In this document: positions 34,807 through 43,538 of the stretch, one piece after another
How the letters are laid out: every line of letters begins with the position of its first letter
Numbering within the stretch: position 1 is the first letter of the stretch
Source of the DNA: Desulfovibrionaceae bacterium
GTDB lineage: Bacteria > Desulfobacterota > Desulfovibrionia > Desulfovibrionales > Desulfovibrionaceae
DNA length: 64,000 bases
Direction: 5' to 3'
NCBI GenBank assembly: GCA_031551565.1
Contig: JAVBNM010000003.1
Span: forward strand, 36,473-100,472
Made by a program: the position numbers and the translations under genes
Notes under the pieces: model-generated
The model's database searches: none
Told to the model about the DNA's origin: nothing
What the model saw: only the letters and a program-made list of their open reading frames with translations

Positions 34807-35406
34807 TTATGAATGTAACATGTCCGTGGGAAGTTTCCCTTTGATTGCGACCGGTATGCCGCAGACCATCAGCACCACGATATCGGCCCTGGCCGCCGCT
34901 TTCTGGTTGGCCGCCCCGGCCAGATCCCGAAAGGTTCGGGCGAGGGACGACTCAGGCACCAGACCGGAGCCCAATTCGTTGGTTACCATGACTACCGGGC
35001 AAGGCAGGCGCGAGAGCGAATCCAGAAGGCCGTCAAGGGCTGTCAGGATTGACGCTTCGTCCAGGCCGGACTCCATCATGCCGGAGCACCACAGCGTCAG
35101 ACAGTCGAACAAAAGCCCCCTGCCATTCACGTCAAGGCCGCCCACCCGGCCGGCCAGGCTTGGCAGATTTTTTATTCCCGGCTCCAGCGCGAACCAGTTC
35201 TTTCCCCTTTCCTGCCGGTGCTTGTCAATGCGTTTTTGCATTTCCCGGTCAAAAGCTTCGGCGGTCGCCAGGTACAGGCCGCCCGGCCGTAAGAACTCGA
35301 CGAGCTTTTGGGCGTAACGCGACTTGCCTGAGCGGCATCCTCCGGTAACCAGGATGAATGGCTGCCCGCGCATGGCGTCAATTTGGCCTTCGGCGGTTTT
35401 GGTCAT
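34807..35406 (-). CDS. cobU: Adenosylcobinamide kinase / cobinamide-phosphate guanylyltransferase
   Basis: LVTGGCRSGKS, YLATA, RIDKHRQER, DCLTLW and VTNELGSGLVP...FRDLAG motifs. Confidence 0.92.
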   Translation of the reverse strand: MTKTAEGQIDAMRGQPFILVTGGCRSGKSRYAQKLVEFLRPGGLYLATAEAFDREMQKRIDKHRQERGKNWFALEPGIKNLPSLAGRVGGLDVNGRGLLFDCLTLWCSGMMESGLDEASILTALDGLLDSLSRLPCPVVMVTNELGSGLVPESSLARTFRDLAGAANQKAAARADIVVLMVCGIPVAIKGKLPTDMLHS

Positions 35407-37019
35407 TGGCCGGCCGCGTCCGTTTCACGGCGCATTCGTTCAAACTGGACGGAAATGTCGCCCAGGATGCCGGAAAGCGTGAAAAGCGCCGGGCGCATGG
35501 ACGCGGGCCTGCGGTTGAGCCAGCAGGCTATGAATACAAGGCTGTCCTGGTCGAGCTGCCGCGTGTCCGATTTGCGCCTGATGGCGGCCGCAAGGGCGGT
35601 CCTTGCCCTCTCGCGCTTGACTATTGCCGCTTGATAGGCGTTGGCGCCGATTTTACCGCCGGTTTTCGCAACGCCGTCCCCGTCGCCGAGCCCAAGGTAG
35701 CGCGCCCTGGCGGTGTGAGCCTCCTCTTCCGCGTTCAGGCAGGCGGTTGTTTTGTCCCCGATTTCGGCATTGGACAGGCAGCCGTTGATGATTGAGGCCA
35801 GAGAAGCGGCGCTGCGGCTGTAGTAGGCGAACATGCGGCTTTTTTCTGCGGCCGAGAGAGCGGTTTTCACGCCCTGGCCCGGCCTTTGCCGCAGTTGGCG
35901 GTCGGCGTGCGCGCTCAGGGATTTGAAAAACTCCGGCCCGCAGGAGCGGTACAGGGCTTTTAGCATGGAAGGGGTGAGTACATATCTTAATATGCGCTCC
36001 CGGTTTTGCGGGGTGCTGTCGGATATGGCGAAGCCGGTCAGGCGCAGACCGTAATAGGCGTTGAGCCACCGGACGTCCGCGCTGCTGAAATCGCCGCGCG
36101 CGGCCTGGGGATGCGTGCCTTTGGGCCAGAAACCGTCGGCCAGGGCCTTGGCGAAGCTGTCGAAAAACAACGGCAGGACCATGCTGTCACTGTTTTGCGG
36201 GCTGACGTTGACGTTTGCAGGCACTTGCGGGGTTTTTCCCCTGATGGTGTTGTCAGCCGGGGAGACCGGCTTGCCCTGGCCGAAACGCAACTCGGTTTCA
36301 ACCCGGTTTTCATTGCCGGGGGTCGACGGGCCGGATGCGTTTTCCCGATTGGCCGCCTGTGGTTTTTTTCCGTCCGGTGATGTTCCCGGCGATGTTTCCG
36401 GCAGCGCTTCTGGCGGCGTTCCTTTTGTGTCGCCGTCGCGCGGTTTGCCTTCAGCCGTGGCGCCGTTCGACGTCCGCCCGTCGTCCGACGCGGGCAGCAG
36501 GGATTCTTCCTTTGGAATGGTCAGGGCGGTTTCGCTCCCGTCGGGTGATTCCTCGGGCAATCCCGGCAAAATGTCCGTTTCCCCGGGCTTGGGGATGCGG
36601 TCTTCAGTGGCGCTTTTACTTTCAGAGCCGGACGGTGGAACGGCCGGGCCGGGTTGCGCGTTTTCCCCTGGTTTCGCGCCTTGCGCGGCGCTGTTTTTGA
36701 GTTCCTCGGCATTAAAAATGGGGCCGCCGCTTCCGGGATGCGGGCTGGGCGGCGTCTCATCTCGCCGCCCGGCTTCTCCCTGGCTGTGCCGCTCGTCGGG
36801 CAGCGGGAAATTTTCCGGGGTAAGGGCGATGGGCTTCCCGGGTTCGCCATCCGGCGGAGTCTGTCCGTTCTTTGTCTGGCGCGCGCCCCACAGCCCCGTG
36901 GCCAGGCGTTTGGGGACCATGCCCTTGTAGTCAAGGGCGAACCAGGCCGCGGCCAGCAGCACGATGATGCAAAAGACGAAGCGTCCGGTATGGAACTTTC
37001 TTTTTTCAGGTGTGGTCAT
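35403..37019 (-). CDS. Membrane-anchored hypothetical protein with a long Pro/Glu/Gly-rich linker
   Basis: N-terminal TM, ~240 aa low-complexity region, globular C-terminal domain; translationally coupled to cobU. Confidence 0.7.
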   Translation of the reverse strand: MTTPEKRKFHTGRFVFCIIVLLAAAWFALDYKGMVPKRLATGLWGARQTKNGQTPPDGEPGKPIALTPENFPLPDERHSQGEAGRRDETPPSPHPGSGGPIFNAEELKNSAAQGAKPGENAQPGPAVPPSGSESKSATEDRIPKPGETDILPGLPEESPDGSETALTIPKEESLLPASDDGRTSNGATAEGKPRDGDTKGTPPEALPETSPGTSPDGKKPQAANRENASGPSTPGNENRVETELRFGQGKPVSPADNTIRGKTPQVPANVNVSPQNSDSMVLPLFFDSFAKALADGFWPKGTHPQAARGDFSSADVRWLNAYYGLRLTGFAISDSTPQNRERILRYVLTPSMLKALYRSCGPEFFKSLSAHADRQLRQRPGQGVKTALSAAEKSRMFAYYSRSAASLASIINGCLSNAEIGDKTTACLNAEEEAHTARARYLGLGDGDGVAKTGGKIGANAYQAAIVKRERARTALAAAIRRKSDTRQLDQDSLVFIACWLNRRPASMRPALFTLSGILGDISVQFERMRRETDAAGQ

Positions 37020-37229: not shown

Positions 37230-38165
37230 TCATGCGTTTTGCGGTCCCCATTTGTTTTTCAGTGACTCCAGATCCCCGGACAGGAGCTTTTCGTACCAGA
37301 ATTCCACCTGGTTCAGGGTCAGGGCGAGCAGTTTCGCCCGCGATGCCGGGGTTTGCGTCTCCATGAGCAGGGATGTCGCTATGCCGCGCAGTTCCAGAGG
37401 GAAATCGCCGGCAAGGGCGTTGACGTTGCAGCCGATGCCGAGCACGGCCCAGTCCGGCGCGCCGCCGCGCAGCCCGGCCTCGGACAGGATGCCCCCGACC
37501 TTGCGTTTTCCGATCAGCACGTCGTTCGGTTTCTTCGCAAGAGGCCTGGCTGAAGTCGCCAGGGATATGGCCTCGGCCAGGGACAGGACCCCCGCCGGGG
37601 TCAGCCAGTCAAGGTCGCCCGCGGGAAGCTTCGGCCTGAGCAGGATGGAAAACTGCAGGGCGCGCGGGGCCGAGAACCAGTTGTCGGCTTTGCGGCCCCG
37701 GCCAAGCGTCTGGCGTTCGGCTGCCACGATGGCGCCCTCGGGCGCTCCCTTGGCCGCAAGTTCGGCGGCGACGCTGTTCGTGGAGCCGGTTTCAGCCAGG
37801 ATGAGCCAGTCGGTGCGGCCTATGAAGCGGGTAGTCAGGTGTTCCTCGACCAGTTCCCGGCTTAAAGGATCGGCCTTGGCCAGCAGTTTGTAGCCGCGCC
37901 GGGGGGCGGAATCAATGGCGTGGCCGAGATCGCGCAGGACGGCCACCCTTTTGGCGATCGCGGCCCGGCTCACGCCAAGGGCGCGCGACAGCTCCTGGCC
38001 GGAGTGCCAGCCGTCGTGGGATTCGAGGCGGTCCAGTATCAGCTCGGCGCGGTCCGCCTGCTCCGGTCCGTCCGGCTGAATCGCGGACGGGGCTTTCGCT
38101 GTGGCCGGGGCTTTTTCCGCCGCTGCGGCTTTCGTTTTGGCTGCGCCTTTCGCTCTTTCTGACAT
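37230..38165 (-). CDS. birA: Bifunctional biotin ligase/repressor
   Basis: HTH SGQELSRALGVSRAAIAK; ETGSTN, QTLGRGR, KKPNDVL..RKVGGIL and GIGCN motifs. Confidence 0.92.
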   Translation of the reverse strand: MSERAKGAAKTKAAAAEKAPATAKAPSAIQPDGPEQADRAELILDRLESHDGWHSGQELSRALGVSRAAIAKRVAVLRDLGHAIDSAPRRGYKLLAKADPLSRELVEEHLTTRFIGRTDWLILAETGSTNSVAAELAAKGAPEGAIVAAERQTLGRGRKADNWFSAPRALQFSILLRPKLPAGDLDWLTPAGVLSLAEAISLATSARPLAKKPNDVLIGKRKVGGILSEAGLRGGAPDWAVLGIGCNVNALAGDFPLELRGIATSLLMETQTPASRAKLLALTLNQVEFWYEKLLSGDLESLKNKWGPQNA

Positions 38166-38197
38166 TGTAAACCTTGTTTTGCAAAGAATGGTTGACA
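38166..38197. promoter_or_regulatory. BirA operator (bioO)
   Basis: TGTAAACC-N16-GGTTGACA, matching the known bioO architecture, between divergent birA and bioB. Confidence 0.9.
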
Positions 38198-38220
38198 ATA
38201 GGGGGGGGATTTTCTAGGGT
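38192..38220 (+). promoter_or_regulatory. Sigma-70 promoter of the bio operon
   Basis: TTGACA-N17-TAGGGT; the -35 lies inside the operator and the spacer contains G8. Confidence 0.6.
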
Positions 38221-38403
38221 CGCCCTCGTTGATTATCCGTCCATAATTCATCGTCCGGAAAAGGCCGGATTTGCGGCGGGAGAATCAGCAAGGTTTGAGC
38301 CGGACGGCGCCGTGCCGTCCGCGACCGCCTTCAAAGCCGTGGCCGCCCTCAAAGCCATGGGCGCCGCGTTGGCTGAACGTCCGTCAAGCAAGGTTGAATT
38401 GTT

Positions 38404-39390
38404 ATGCCGAAAGATATGACCCGATCCATTTTCAGCGCGGCGGCTGAAGGGCGCCCGCTTGACGCCGGAGACGCCGCGCGGTTGTTCGAATCCTTCCCGG
38501 ACAACCTGCTCGACATCACGGCCGCCGCCGGCATGGCCGCCAGGGCCGCCCACGGCGCGGGAGCGGCCGCGCCCTTCACCTGCGGCATCGTGAACGCCAA
38601 ATCCGGGCGTTGCAGCGAGAATTGCGCGTTTTGCTCCCAATCTTCCTACCACAAGACCAATAGCCCGGTCTACGGCCTGATCGGCGAGAAGGAGCTTTTT
38701 GAGAGGGCCGCGAGGCTCGACGGCGACGGCGTCGACTTCATGGGCATCGTGACCAGCGGGGCCGGTCCGGACGATGATGATTTCGCCGCCATATGCAGGG
38801 TGGCCGGGCGCATCCGCTCAAAGCTCGGCATCAGGCTTTGCGCCTCGCTCGGCGTGCTTGGCCGGGAAAAGGCCAGGGCCCTGAAGGACGCCGGTTTCAC
38901 AAGCTACCACCACAACCTGGAAACCGGGGAGGCGTATTATCCCAAGATATGCACGACCCACGGCTGGCGTCTGCGCTACGAGACGGTCATGCAGGCCAGG
39001 GACGCCGGGCTGCGGGTGTGTTCGGGCGGGATCTTCGGCCTTGGGGAGACGCTCAAGGACCGCCTCGACCTCTCCCTGGCCCTGCGCGAGCTTGATGTTG
39101 ACTGCATACCATTGAATTTTCTGACCCCCATTCCGGGAACCCCGCTTGAAAACAGCGCCGGGCTCCGTGCTGACGAGGCCCTGGCCGTGGTCGCCCTGTT
39201 CAGGCTGATGCACCCCAAAAGGGATATCGTCATTTGCGGCGGCCGGGGGAGCACCTTCGGGCGGTGGGAGAACAGCTTGTTCTTCGCCGGGGCCAACGGC
39301 CTGATGGTCGGGGATTATCTGACCTCAAAGGGCAGCTCTTTCACGGACGACAAAGAGATGCTGCGCCTGCTCGGTGTCTGGAAAAGGTGA
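38404..39390 (+). CDS. bioB: Biotin synthase (radical SAM)
   Basis: NAKSGRCSENCAFCSQS, YHHNLET, VCSGGIFGLGE, IPLNFL.PIPGTP and GDYLT motifs. Confidence 0.95.
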   Translation: MPKDMTRSIFSAAAEGRPLDAGDAARLFESFPDNLLDITAAAGMAARAAHGAGAAAPFTCGIVNAKSGRCSENCAFCSQSSYHKTNSPVYGLIGEKELFERAARLDGDGVDFMGIVTSGAGPDDDDFAAICRVAGRIRSKLGIRLCASLGVLGREKARALKDAGFTSYHHNLETGEAYYPKICTTHGWRLRYETVMQARDAGLRVCSGGIFGLGETLKDRLDLSLALRELDVDCIPLNFLTPIPGTPLENSAGLRADEALAVVALFRLMHPKRDIVICGGRGSTFGRWENSLFFAGANGLMVGDYLTSKGSSFTDDKEMLRLLGVWKR

Positions 39391-39394
39391 TCTT

Positions 39395-41674
39395 ATGAAT
39401 TTGCGCGCCAAACGCTGCCTGTGCGTACTCGGGACCGATACTGACGCTGGAAAGACCGTGGCCGCGGCCGCTCTCGGGCTTTGCGCCTGGAGAACCGGCC
39501 TTGCGGTCGCCGTACTCAAGCCGGTGCAGACCGGCTGCATCCCAACTTCCGACGGCGGCTGCGCCGCGCCGGACCTTGGCGCGTATTTCGACGCCTGCCC
39601 GGATATTGAGGCCGGATGCCTGGTCAGGCTTGAGCCGGCCTGTTCCCCGCACCTGGCCCTGCGTCTGGCCGGGCGGGAGCTGCGGGCGGCGGATCTGGCC
39701 GCCGGCGTGAGGAACTGGATTGAGCGGTCCAAGGCTGACGTGGTCATCATCGAGGGGGCCGGGGGCGTGCTGACGCCCCTGAACGAGAGCGAGAGCATCC
39801 TTGACGCCCTGCGGCATATTGACTGCGAGGTCGTCCTGGTTGCCGCGAACAGGCTGGGGGCGCTTAACCACGCGCTCTTGTCCGTTGAGGCCGTGAAGTC
39901 TCGCGGCATGCGCCTTGCCGGTTTCGTGCTGGCCAACCCCTTGCCGGAGCCGTCCGGAGAAGATTACGGCCTTTGCGGGCGAGGCCGGGCGGATGAAGGC
40001 CCGGGAGCGGATTATGGAACCGGCCGGGAGCGGGGCGCGGACGCCAAGGACGATGACGCGGCGCGTGCGGGTTTTAGAGCGGATGACTCGGCGGACGGGG
40101 AGCCGGGCGCTGGAATGATGGATGAAGCCGCGCTGGCGGCCAGGATCGCGGCGGACAATAAAACCGCTCTGGCCGGGATGGCCGGCCTGCCGTGCATTGC
40201 CGAACTGGCGCATGAGCCGGGCATAAAAAGCCCGGTGCGGGGCGTCAGGCGCGCTGCCTGGTCCAGGCTGGCCTTCTCTTTTGACGGATTTATCAGGGCC
40301 ATGGCCGAAGACACGGTCCCGCGCGGTCCGGGGGCCGGAGCGGGGGGCCAGCCGGACGGCCTGGCCGCGCCGGGCGGGAATATCCCGTCCTGTTCATCGC
40401 GGGCCGAGTTCGACCGGATGCATGTCTGGCATCCGTACTCCCCGGCTGTGCCTTCCCTGCCGGCCTACGAGGCGGACCGGACCGGCGGCTGCCGGATCGT
40501 CCTGCGCGGCGGCGAGAGCCTGGTCGACGGCATGTCCTCGTGGTGGTGCGCGGTCCACGGCTACAATCATCCCCGTCTCATCAGCGCCCTGGCCGGGCAG
40601 GCGGCGCGCATGCCCCACGTCATGTTCGGCGGGCTGACGCACGAGCCGGCGGCGGAACTCGCCAGAAAACTGCTCGAGATGGCCCCGGGACGGATGGAAC
40701 ATTGCTTTTTCGCCGATTCCGGCTCGGTGTCGGTCGAGGTGGCCCTGAAAATGGCCGTGCAGTATCAAAGGGCCGTCGGGAGGCCGGGGAAGGAGAAAAT
40801 CCTCGCGGTGCGCGGCGGCTATCACGGAGACACCTTCGGGGCCATGAGCGTCTGCGACCCGGAAAACGGCATGCACTCGCTGTTCACGGGCGTTCTCGCG
40901 CGGCAGATTTTCGCGCCGAGGCCCGAATGCCGCTTTGATTCGCCCTACGACCCGGCCCCGGCCATGGCGCTTGAGGAAATTTTCGAGCAGAACGCCTCCT
41001 CCATCGCGGCCATGATCATTGAGCCGGTGGTGCAGGGCGCGGGCGGGATGTGGATGTACCATCCGGAATACCTCAAACGCGCGGCGAGCCTTTGCCGGGA
41101 ACACGGCTGCCTGTTGATCCTGGACGAGGTGGCCACGGGATTTGGCCGCACCGGCAGGCTGTTCGCCGCCGAATGGGCGGGCGTTTCCCCGGACATCGCC
41201 TGCGTGGGCAAGGCCCTGACCGGCGGGGTGATGACCCTGGCCGCGGCCATGTGCACCGCCGAGGTGGCTTTGGGCATATCCGCCGAGGGCGGGGCGCTGA
41301 TGCACGGGCCGACCTTCATGGCCAACCCGCTGGCCTGCGCCGTGGCCAACGCCTCGCTCGACATCATCCGCGAAGGCGGCTGGCGCGGGCAGGTGACGGC
41401 GATTGAGGAGAAGCTCAAGGCCGACCTCCTGCCCTGCCGGGATCTGCCCGGAGTGGCCGATGTGCGGGCGCTCGGGGCGATCGGCGTCGTTGAGATGCGC
41501 TCCCCGGTCAATGTGCGGCGTTTGCAGGAATATTTAATCAAACGGCACTCCGTCTGGCTGCGGCCTTTCGGGAGACTGATCTACATAATGCCACCGTACG
41601 TTATCAGCGGCGGCGAGCTTGGCTCGCTCACAGCCGCGATACGCGGGGCGCTTGAGGAAGAACAATGGGCATAG
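39395..41674 (+). CDS. bioD-bioA: Fused dethiobiotin synthase / DAPA aminotransferase (BioD-BioA)
   Basis: BioD: GTDTDAGKT, KPVQTG, IEGAGG, GALNHALL. BioA: WHPY, DGMSSWW, GYHGDT, DEVATGFGRTG, GKALTGG, HGPTFMANP. One continuous frame. Confidence 0.92.
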   Translation: MNLRAKRCLCVLGTDTDAGKTVAAAALGLCAWRTGLAVAVLKPVQTGCIPTSDGGCAAPDLGAYFDACPDIEAGCLVRLEPACSPHLALRLAGRELRAADLAAGVRNWIERSKADVVIIEGAGGVLTPLNESESILDALRHIDCEVVLVAANRLGALNHALLSVEAVKSRGMRLAGFVLANPLPEPSGEDYGLCGRGRADEGPGADYGTGRERGADAKDDDAARAGFRADDSADGEPGAGMMDEAALAARIAADNKTALAGMAGLPCIAELAHEPGIKSPVRGVRRAAWSRLAFSFDGFIRAMAEDTVPRGPGAGAGGQPDGLAAPGGNIPSCSSRAEFDRMHVWHPYSPAVPSLPAYEADRTGGCRIVLRGGESLVDGMSSWWCAVHGYNHPRLISALAGQAARMPHVMFGGLTHEPAAELARKLLEMAPGRMEHCFFADSGSVSVEVALKMAVQYQRAVGRPGKEKILAVRGGYHGDTFGAMSVCDPENGMHSLFTGVLARQIFAPRPECRFDSPYDPAPAMALEEIFEQNASSIAAMIIEPVVQGAGGMWMYHPEYLKRAASLCREHGCLLILDEVATGFGRTGRLFAAEWAGVSPDIACVGKALTGGVMTLAAAMCTAEVALGISAEGGALMHGPTFMANPLACAVANASLDIIREGGWRGQVTAIEEKLKADLLPCRDLPGVADVRALGAIGVVEMRSPVNVRRLQEYLIKRHSVWLRPFGRLIYIMPPYVISGGELGSLTAAIRGALEEEQWA

Positions 41675-43017
41675 CTTTTCTCGTCATCTACGCCGGGCTT
41701 CTCGTTTTCGTGGCCTTTCTCACGGCCAGGAAGCAGTCCCAGGCCGATTTCTACGTCAACAGCCGCCGCAGCAGCGCCCTTGGGGTGGGCATGTCCATCG
41801 TCGTCTCCTGTGTCGGCGCTTCAGCCACGCTCGGGATGATCGGCATGGCCTTTGACGTCGGCGTTCCGGCCGTCTGGTGGCTGGGGGCCGGGAGCCTGGG
41901 GCTGGTCTTGCTTTCGTTGCTGCTGGCCGGAAAGGTCAGGGAGAGCAACGCCCGGACCATGCCCGAGCTTGTGGAGACGTTTCTCGGCAAGCAGGCCAGG
42001 CCGCTGATTTCCGTCCTGATCGTCCTCGCCTGGAGCGCCATCCTGGCCGCCCAGTTCACCGCCCTGCTCAAGGTGCTGCAATCCATGAGCGGGCTGCCCA
42101 CGGCGGCCTGCCTTGGGATCGGCTATCTTTTCGTCGTCCTGCACACCATGGGCGGACAGGCGGCCATTATGAAGGCGGACCGCTTCCAGACCCTGATCCT
42201 TTTCGTGTCCGTGGCGGTGCTGCTTATGGCCCTGTGGGGAGAAAATCCGGGCTGGGCCGGGCTGGTCGAGCTTGAGGCGACCAACAAGGCTTTCCCGCCC
42301 GAGCGTCTGCTCTGGTACGTCCTTGTGGTTGGCGCGAACTATCTGGTTTGCCCGATGCTGTTCGGGCGGCTGCTCAGCGCGAGGGACGGGCGCTCCGCAA
42401 GGCTTGGCGGGCTTCTCGGCGCGGCCGGCATAGCGGTCTGCGCCGTGGTCATCGTCTGCATCGGCCTTTCCCTGCGCGGGATTGTGCCGCCGGGAACAGC
42501 CCCGGACGCCGCCCTGACCACGGCTTTAGCCAAATATGTCCCGGCCTGGCTCAATATTGTCGTATCAATCGCCCTGATCAGCGCGATAGTTTCCTCGGCC
42601 GACTCCTGCCTGGTCACGGCGGCCACGGTACTCAGCCATGACCTTTTGCAAAGGCCGGACCTGAGGACCGCTAAAATCTGTGTGGCCGCCCTGGGCCTGG
42701 CCGGGCTTTTGCTCAGCCTTTGGGGCAAGGGCATTCTCGACTATCTGCTCATGGCCTACGACGTTTACGCCTGCGGCGTTGTGGCCCCGGTTTTCGTCGG
42801 CCTTCTGCTTGTCAGGAAGAGGAGGGTGGACGCCCGCTTCGCCTGCCTGGCCGTGGCCGCCGGGGGAATCCTGGGCGGGCTGTCGGCCCTGACCGGGAAG
42901 AATTTTTACAGCTACATCGGCATGGGCCTGTCCGCCGCCATCGCGCTTTGCGGATCGCGGCTGAAGACGCCGGATTCGCCGTTGGGCCGGGGAACGGCCG
43001 AACCGGGGGCGCGCTGA
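41665..43017 (+). CDS. Sodium:solute symporter (SSS) family transporter
   Basis: About 13 TM segments; DFYVNSRR, TMPELVE..LG and SAIVSSADS..L motifs; overlaps the bioD-bioA stop. Confidence 0.88.
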   Translation: MGIAFLVIYAGLLVFVAFLTARKQSQADFYVNSRRSSALGVGMSIVVSCVGASATLGMIGMAFDVGVPAVWWLGAGSLGLVLLSLLLAGKVRESNARTMPELVETFLGKQARPLISVLIVLAWSAILAAQFTALLKVLQSMSGLPTAACLGIGYLFVVLHTMGGQAAIMKADRFQTLILFVSVAVLLMALWGENPGWAGLVELEATNKAFPPERLLWYVLVVGANYLVCPMLFGRLLSARDGRSARLGGLLGAAGIAVCAVVIVCIGLSLRGIVPPGTAPDAALTTALAKYVPAWLNIVVSIALISAIVSSADSCLVTAATVLSHDLLQRPDLRTAKICVAALGLAGLLLSLWGKGILDYLLMAYDVYACGVVAPVFVGLLLVRKRRVDARFACLAVAAGGILGGLSALTGKNFYSYIGMGLSAAIALCGSRLKTPDSPLGRGTAEPGAR

Positions 43018-43105
43018 GCCGGCAGGCGGTTGAATCAGGTGGCGCGCTGAGCCGGCAGGCGGTTGAATCAGGGAACGGTTGATCCGGCAGGCGCGTTGAA
43101 CCGGG
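43008..43105. repeat. 33-bp tandem repeat (2 near-perfect copies + 1 degenerate)
   Basis: GGCGCGCTGAGCCGGCAGGCGGTTGAATCAGG at 43008 and 43041, followed by a decayed copy. Confidence 0.85.
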
Positions 43106-43538
43106 CGTCTGCCCGGAGAGAGGTCGTTTCGCCGCTGACGGAACCGCCCGATGATTTCGCGGCGGAATTTGACGAAGCCGCCGGACGCGGTGGAATTTGG
43201 CCGCGCGCGCTTTTACGGCCCGCCGCGACAGGCGGCTCCGGGCTGGTTCTGAATCCGGCCCGGCCCTTTACTCCGGAAATTTATTTTTGGGTGTTCATCG
43301 CGCTTTTCCTGTAACGCCGCCGTCTTTTTCCTTTCCGCCTTTTCCATTCAGCCTTGCCCCGGCGCGTGCCCGCCCCTTCGCGCTTCTTTCGCGCCCCCGC
43401 CCCTCTTTTTGCTCAACATCCCGTCCGCCGGATTCCCCCAGCATTTAAATTGCCTAGGGGGGGATTTCCTGCTAATGGGTAGTTCTTGCCATTCGCGCCT
43501 GGGCAGCGGCCAGGACTGGTTTTCTTCATGGAGAAAAT

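Follow-up and report, generated by a model that had tools for sequence, protein, structure and literature searches.

A late-pathway biotin operon under predicted BirA control that ends in an SSS-family symporter gene, a candidate importer of biotin precursors in gut bacteria

How does a bacterium whose biotin operon encodes only the last steps of the pathway obtain the intermediate on which these steps act? This question is raised by a stretch of 64,000 nt from a sulfate-reducing Desulfovibrionaceae bacterium (assembly GCA_031551565.1, contig JAVBNM010000003.1, positions 36,473 to 100,472), a metagenome-assembled genome (MAG) from an invertebrate-gut metagenome; this whole stretch is hereafter called the window. 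Its biotin operon consists of bioB, a bioD-bioA fusion and a gene for a symporter of the SSS family, with a bioO-type operator and a divergent birA gene upstream. [quoted passage not shown] The answer favoured here, with a probability of roughly 0.6 and based on gene linkage, is that the SSS protein would import biotin vitamers, mainly KAPA and DAPA, with uptake of dethiobiotin or biotin also possible. Its substrate, the direction of transport, its coupling to sodium and the lack of bioF in this genome are inferred. The novelty would be a BirA-controlled late-pathway salvage operon with an SSS carrier in place of BioY.

The evidence carrying this reading is the conserved linkage of the SSS gene to late biotin genes. 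There are 380 homologues that share words with the protein, the closest at 50-62% identity and nearly all without specific names; when 1.84 billion cluster representatives were searched exhaustively, 161 clusters came out at E<=1e-30. Loci were retrieved from one-genome-per-species contigs (80) and from metagenomes (80, a set redundant for human-gut Sutterella) and were annotated by BLASTP with BioB, BioD, BioA, BirA and the SSS protein of the window. When the species-level loci are restricted to the 74 in which 700 nt or more are available upstream, a late bio gene lies directly upstream of the SSS gene in 61, the partner being bioDA in 49, bioD in five, bioA in five (on truncated contigs), bioB-bioD in one and bioB in one; two further species-level loci have bioDA 120-200 nt upstream, and the same linkage is seen on the metagenome contigs. 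In 47 of 70 loci the stop codon of the preceding gene and the start codon of the SSS gene overlap, usually by 4 or 10 nt, and in 62 of the 70 the two are no more than 15 nt apart. At least six gene orders occur, among them birA<->bioB-bioDA-SSS, birA<->bioDA-SSS, birA<->bioDA-SSS-bioB, bioD-bioA-SSS-bioB, SSS-[bioB~bioA]-bioD and [bioB~bioD]-SSS. Reduced forms exist as well: birA<->bioD-SSS(-bioB), with no bioA in the locus, forms a subclade of its own with strong support in the SSS tree, and in Desulfovibrio psychrotolerans bioDA-SSS stands alone beside birA, with no bioB there. Thus BioD, with or without BioA, is the constant minimal partner of the SSS protein, not BioB or BirA, and an all-against-all clustering of the flanking open reading frames (ORFs) revealed no other conserved neighbour.

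Carriers are labelled as Desulfovibrionaceae (Desulfovibrio, Mailhella, Bilophila), Desulfobacter, Adiutrix, Sutterellaceae, Planctomycetota, Kiritimatiellota/Kiritimatiellia and Treponema, the majority being from the guts of humans, animals or termites; taxon labels of MAGs were used as given, and some termite-gut 'Burkholderiales' and 'Myxococcota' labels may be binning errors. Named carriers among the listed matches are D. desulfuricans (other than ATCC 27774), strain G11, D. falkowii, D. legallii, D. diazotrophicus, D. psychrotolerans, Megalodesulfovibrio paquesii and Mailhella massiliensis. The bio linkage is still seen at 38% and 36% identity and is lost at 33%, 30% and 28%; since it ends below about 36% identity, the bio-linked clade is a delimited part of a wider family of short SSS proteins. 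As read from these gene orders and labels, the linkage outlasts both gene shuffling and transfer between phyla. The earlier note on this DNA, written from the letters alone, had proposed checking how often this SSS clade co-occurs with bio genes and bioO, and the association came out clearly, with 61 of the 74 loci linked and bioO present where birA adjoins the operon.

Some individual loci deserve mention in their own right. Two lone metagenomic contigs, in which an assembly or frame error is possible, carry a single ORF adjoining the SSS gene that seemingly fuses BioB with BioD (L003, 3-1766) or BioB with BioA (L124, 2294-4552). Eight Sutterella/Duodenibacillus loci with an unlinked SSS gene (L063, L066, L068, L069, L077, L079, L081, L082) have no bio gene within 10 kb; the SSS neighbours in these Sutterellaceae are dus, ribF and ADP-ribosylglycohydrolase genes, and a sister Sutterella subclade has bioDA-SSS.

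What the linkage says about the substrate follows from the partner genes. Because the SSS gene is coupled to bioD or bioDA, and because reduced bioDA-SSS and bioD-SSS operons exist, the imported compound is probably used at or before the BioD step; with BioD, with or without BioA, as the constant partner, the likely substrate is narrowed to DAPA or, in loci with BioA, to KAPA as well. The bioDA-SSS-only and bioD-SSS operons fit import of DAPA or KAPA, and neither would be required for imported biotin. In the mechanism proposed, one operon would comprise bioB followed by bioD-bioA and the SSS gene, the last being transcribed together with bioD-bioA and coupled to it in translation. With ample biotin, BirA would bind the bioO palindrome and repress this operon; under biotin shortage the transporter would be made along with BioA, BioD and BioB, the sodium-coupled importer would bring in intermediates of the biotin pathway, and biotin would be finished from vitamers that other gut microbes release. 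Of the earlier proposal that the symporter imports KAPA, DAPA, dethiobiotin or biotin as part of a late-pathway module, the importer role is supported by the conserved linkage and the substrate is narrowed towards DAPA and KAPA.

In the window, the ORF map and profile searches give the gene order cobU, a 538-aa ORF and birA on the minus strand, followed on the plus strand by bioB, the bioD-bioA fusion, the SSS gene and then glyQ and glyS, with the following features.

34807-35406, minus strand: cobU (ORF map and profile searches).
35403-37019, minus strand: 538-aa ORF between cobU and birA, with no match in Pfam or NCBIfam.
37230-38165, minus strand: birA, bifunctional biotin-protein ligase/repressor with an N-terminal helix-turn-helix (HTH) domain, divergent from the bio operon (Pfam HTH_11 and BPL_LplA_LipB).
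38165-38198, no strand assigned: bioO-type BirA operator, TTGTAAACC-N16-GGTTGACAA, touching the birA start codon, with one mismatch to the consensus.
38192-38220, plus strand: candidate bioB promoter found by eye, TTGACA (in the right half of bioO), 17-nt spacer, TAGGGT, giving a leader of about 180 nt.
38404-39390, plus strand: bioB, biotin synthase (Radical_SAM and BATS domains; TIGR00433 at 337 bits, cut-off 225).
39374-41674, plus strand: bioD-bioA fusion of 766 aa, dethiobiotin synthetase, low-complexity linker and DAPA aminotransferase (Pfam, TIGR00508).
41665-41674, plus strand: 10 nt, ATGGGCATAG, shared by the SSS gene from its ATG and the end of bioA with its TAG stop codon.
41665-43017, plus strand: SSS-family symporter gene, 450 aa, about 13 helices (PF00474).

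The profiles and the sequence thus bear out what the earlier note had read by itself, namely bioO, then bioB, bioD-bioA and an SSS gene that overlaps the bioA stop. This overlap implies a putative translational coupling of the SSS gene with bioA. G+C content is 63-67% over the operon and its neighbours, and with such even values no compositional island is seen at the operon. The fusion has AAA_26 at residues 16-189 and Aminotran_3 at 365-759, scores 544 bits with TIGR00508, shares 56% of its residues with E. coli BioA and 34% with E. coli BioD, and its translation displays the BioD P-loop GTDTDAGKT and the BioA pyridoxal-phosphate lysine motif VGKALTGG; its real start may be the ATG at 39395 instead of 39374. 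About 60 Gly/Asp/Ala/Arg-rich low-complexity residues (39974-40400) split its BioD part, a second such stretch links BioD to BioA, and the fusion varies from 647 to 873 aa among relatives. In BioB the radical-SAM motif CxxxCxxC is present as CSENCAFC. Aligned to E. coli BioB, it is without a Cys equivalent to C97, a [2Fe-2S] ligand in E. coli, retains C128, C188 and R260, and has an additional Cys two residues ahead of the R260 equivalent (ICGGR); it may be an anaerobe-type biotin synthase with a different auxiliary cluster.

Is the operon under BirA control? The birA product scores 109 bits with TIGR00121 (cut-off 83), and its sole plausible start is the ATG at 38165, the only other ATG, GTG or TTG near the 5' end of the ORF being the TTG at 38198, inside bioO. 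With the consensus TTGTAAACC...GGTTTACAA, as quoted in PMC545781, a scan of 1.25 Mb, made up of the window and 82 related loci, placed all 14 sites with no more than two mismatches in birA/bio intergenic regions, and the 13 bioO-like sites with three or four mismatches were scattered. A looser scan found the same half-sites in Mailhella and Bilophila loci with a spacer of 18-19 nt, and wherever birA adjoins the operon, in the window and in relatives, bioO is present. The window thus has the two marks of a BirA regulon, a predicted bioO upstream of the operon and an HTH-bearing BirA adjacent to it. An autoregulated divergent birA is typical for Desulfovibrionales (PMC5343134). Since the right half-site of bioO holds a perfect TTGACA, the bioB promoter probably overlaps the operator; the promoter/terminator scan did not call the candidate at 38192-38220. 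From bioO to bioB the leader (38199-38403) measures 205 nt, and about 5-115 nt in relatives; an Rfam search of this leader and of the whole operon for a riboswitch or RNA element returned no match at E<=1. The operon of the D. desulfuricans/falkowii/diazotrophicus group (L030, L032, L035, L036, L038, L053, L054, L080, L171-L176), bioB-bioDA-SSS, always has a Ros/MucR-family regulator gene about 100-400 nt upstream of bioB, and its regulation may be different.

Does the gene encode a true member of the SSS family, and does the protein itself reveal a substrate? It matches only PF00474, at 63.9 bits against a gathering score of 22.8, and has no homology to BioY (PF02632) or to the EamA-type YigM. 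With TIGR00813 it scores 72 bits, below the strict cut-off of 184, and in NCBIfam no equivalog or other specific model fits it. The AlphaFold model, built on 22 relatives, has a pLDDT of 89, a pTM of 0.88 and about 13 helices, and Foldseek aligns it to CHT1, SGLT2, SiaT and NIS with TM scores of 0.77-0.85 at 14-19% identity; a profile search of PDB sequences led to the same families (CHT1, SGLT, SiaT, NIS) at E of about 1e-12. By its PF00474 match and modelled fold, the protein is a genuine LeuT-fold member of the SSS family (TC 2.A.21). It is shorter than the nearest solved proteins CHT1, SGLT2, SiaT and vSGLT, which share 14-19% identity with it (450 aa versus 470-602 residues). PanF is a Na+/pantothenate symporter and the animal SMVT (SLC5A6) carries biotin, pantothenate and lipoate with Na+; both belong to the PF00474 superfamily and have the LeuT fold, and the comparison with them drawn in the earlier note stands at this superfamily level, although not as orthology to PanF, an identity rejected at 46.6 bits against the TIGR02119 cut-off of 328. 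No SMVT entry was among the best PDB matches, and the library may not contain one.

The broken core helices of the model fall at the invariant GASAT (51-55) and NYxVCP (225-230), the latter part of a longer segment NYxVCPxLFxR (225-235). An invariant AxxSSAD (A307, S310, S311, D313) lies in helix 294-327, the putative counterpart of the helix with the Na2-site Ser/Thr pair (core TM8) in solved SSS proteins, with AxxSS resembling the vSGLT/PutP site. Of the core residues compared, only Y226 and C229 distinguish the clade from its distant unlinked relatives. A residue comparison of the bioDA-linked, bioD-only and unlinked subclades found no core residue that separates them, hence no substrate signature.

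If the protein supplies precursors, the early steps should be missing. Neither E. coli BioF nor E. coli BioC had a tblastn match at E<1e-4 in the window, or any match in 165 loci covering about 1.9 Mb, in which the same search recovered BioA in 102, BioD in 94 and BioB in 62 loci. Pfam scans of 20 further ORFs of the window yielded no protein of the BioY, BioW, BioC or BioH type. The absence of bioF and bioC noted by eye is borne out for the window by these searches, that of bioH and bioW for the ORFs scanned. The window has the BioA, BioD, BioB and BirA of the A3 pathway variant, which is further defined by a genome without BioF. In PMC6593275 (Rodionov 2019), the gut strains D. piger, D. desulfuricans ATCC 27774, Bilophila wadsworthia 3_1_6, Desulfovibrio sp. 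3_1_syn3 and Desulfovibrio sp. 6_1_46AFAA are scored as biotin prototrophs, and none of these five strains is among the named carriers in two lists of the best 120 homologues, which is a weak hint that SSS carriers are not bioF-complete.

Among known systems, the best functional analogue would be the yeast permease Bio5p. According to Phalip 1999 (as cited in PMC7187267), Bio5 is a permease that brings in both KAPA and DAPA, and its expression goes together with that of the BIO3 and BIO4 enzymes; there, too, the transporter gene lies beside the genes for DAPA aminotransferase (BIO3, equal to BioA) and dethiobiotin synthetase (BIO4, equal to BioD), is induced at low biotin and lets the cell join the pathway after the KAPA synthase step. 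Bio5p differs in being a eukaryotic APC-family permease, not homologous at the family level, and in its regulation by Vhr1 as against BirA/bioO, and its transport has been demonstrated, whereas that of the SSS protein is predicted. Closer in setting are the gut genomes of the A3 and A2 variants, whose incomplete pathways are predicted in PMC6593275 to salvage KAPA, DAPA or dethiobiotin. Those with BioY likewise combine the last two or three steps and a transporter with the lack of bioF and with BirA control, and are read there as salvage; the only biotin carriers named in that paper are BioY, BioMN and YigM. BioY is an unrelated small ECF S-component, and the SSS protein stands in its place here. 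YigM/BioP of E. coli is likewise a secondary carrier for a biotin vitamer in a Gram-negative bacterium, but belongs to the EamA/DMT superfamily and is unlinked to bioD and bioA. The canonical Desulfovibrio operon runs birA<->bioB-bioA-five fab-like genes (acyl carrier protein, FabF-, FabG- and FabZ-like)-bioF-bioD, and all its genes are needed for growth without biotin (PMC10102598, PMC545781). It shares with the window operon the divergent birA, the intervening bioO and bioB as first gene, whereas the window operon is without the fab-like genes and bioF, has bioD fused before bioA and ends in the symporter gene. Full-text literature searches, with subscription journals outside their coverage, brought up no paper linking an SSS protein to bacterial biotin genes or precursors.

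Several observations weigh against a dedicated importer of precursors under BirA control. In eight Sutterellaceae species and two Desulfovibrionaceae loci the SSS gene is unlinked to bio genes and yet keeps Y226 and C229; because the Sutterellaceae genes retain these residues, a wider range including dethiobiotin or biotin is conceivable. The D. desulfuricans/falkowii/diazotrophicus operon has neither an adjacent birA nor a recognisable bioO. Expression support is thin, consisting of a single 996-nt metatranscriptome contig (37632-38627) with the birA 5' part, bioO and the bioB 5' part, possibly DNA carry-over, the contigs being too sparse to reveal co-transcription of bioA and the SSS gene. 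Finally, bio genes can be scattered, as with bioB outside the D. psychrotolerans locus, so that bioF could lie elsewhere in the genome. These points bear on the alternative that the protein imports finished biotin, perhaps dethiobiotin, and is simply co-regulated by BirA with a pathway that is complete, its bioF and pimeloyl genes being encoded at other places in the genome. BirA regulons often contain biotin importers, bio genes are dispersed in some carriers, and the unlinked Sutterellaceae subclade with the same signature residues fits biotin or dethiobiotin uptake as well or better; Sutterella wadsworthensis, moreover, is scored as a B7 auxotroph in PMC6593275. However, the SSS gene is joined most tightly and most constantly to bioD or bioDA, in many cases through overlapping codons, and not to birA or bioB; an operon with nothing but bioDA-SSS or bioD-SSS would be of use only if the imported compound joins the pathway no later than BioD, and bioF is never adjacent in 165 loci. 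The absence of the named gut Desulfovibrionaceae scored as B7 prototrophs in that paper from the listed carriers points weakly the same way, and this alternative is held to be unlikely.

It is decidedly improbable that the protein carries some other solute, such as an amino donor of BioA or a small carboxylate, or an unrelated one, with its position that of a conserved hitch-hiker. Distant members at 28-33% identity do adjoin alanine racemase, fucose isomerase and other genes, and since these genes are unrelated the wider family would have other substrates; but within the clade the bio linkage holds down to about 36-38% identity over several phyla and gene orders, for which chance or hitch-hiking is insufficient, and S-adenosylmethionine, the usual amino donor of BioA, is made inside the cell, as is generally known. 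Export of biotin or vitamers to the community or the host has the slimmest chance: characterised SSS proteins are Na+-driven importers, and with late steps alone an operon could supply a product for export only after uptake of a precursor, even though PMC6593275 speculates that certain secondary vitamin carriers excrete. Import of KAPA and DAPA thus remains the preferred reading. Its furthest-reaching form, which we advance tentatively and at somewhat less than even odds, is that the SSS clade would be the first permease in bacteria devoted to KAPA and DAPA, travelling with bioD or bioDA as a small, horizontally mobile cassette that lets gut anaerobes without bioF finish biotin from what their neighbours leak.

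An SSS family coupled to bioD and bioA provides a concrete and testable gene. If import of KAPA and DAPA is right, the missing carrier of the A2/A3 auxotroph classes would be identified, a vitamin-precursor specificity would be added to the SSS family, and auxotrophy would be better predicted for relatives of Desulfovibrio, Mailhella, Bilophila and Sutterella that inhabit the guts of humans, animals and insects. Early biotin intermediates, beyond biotin and dethiobiotin, would then be exchanged in gut communities, with Desulfovibrionaceae, Sutterellaceae, termite-gut planctomycetes, spirochaetes and others as beneficiaries.

Two minor features of the window remain to be recorded. At the end of the operon, a perfect 33-nt tandem duplication (GGCGCGCTGAGCCGGCAGGCGGTTGAATCAGG+1), read by eye at 43007-43072, starts from the last SSS codons and doubles the stop region. 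The upstream regions of bioB and glyQ (38192-38220 and 43449-43477) share a -35-like hexamer, a 17-nt spacer and a TAnnGT/G hexamer; the shared spacer contains a run of seven or eight G plus ATTT(T/C)C. This motif has three occurrences in the window where 0.5 would be expected, and the arrangement may be a promoter feature of this organism.

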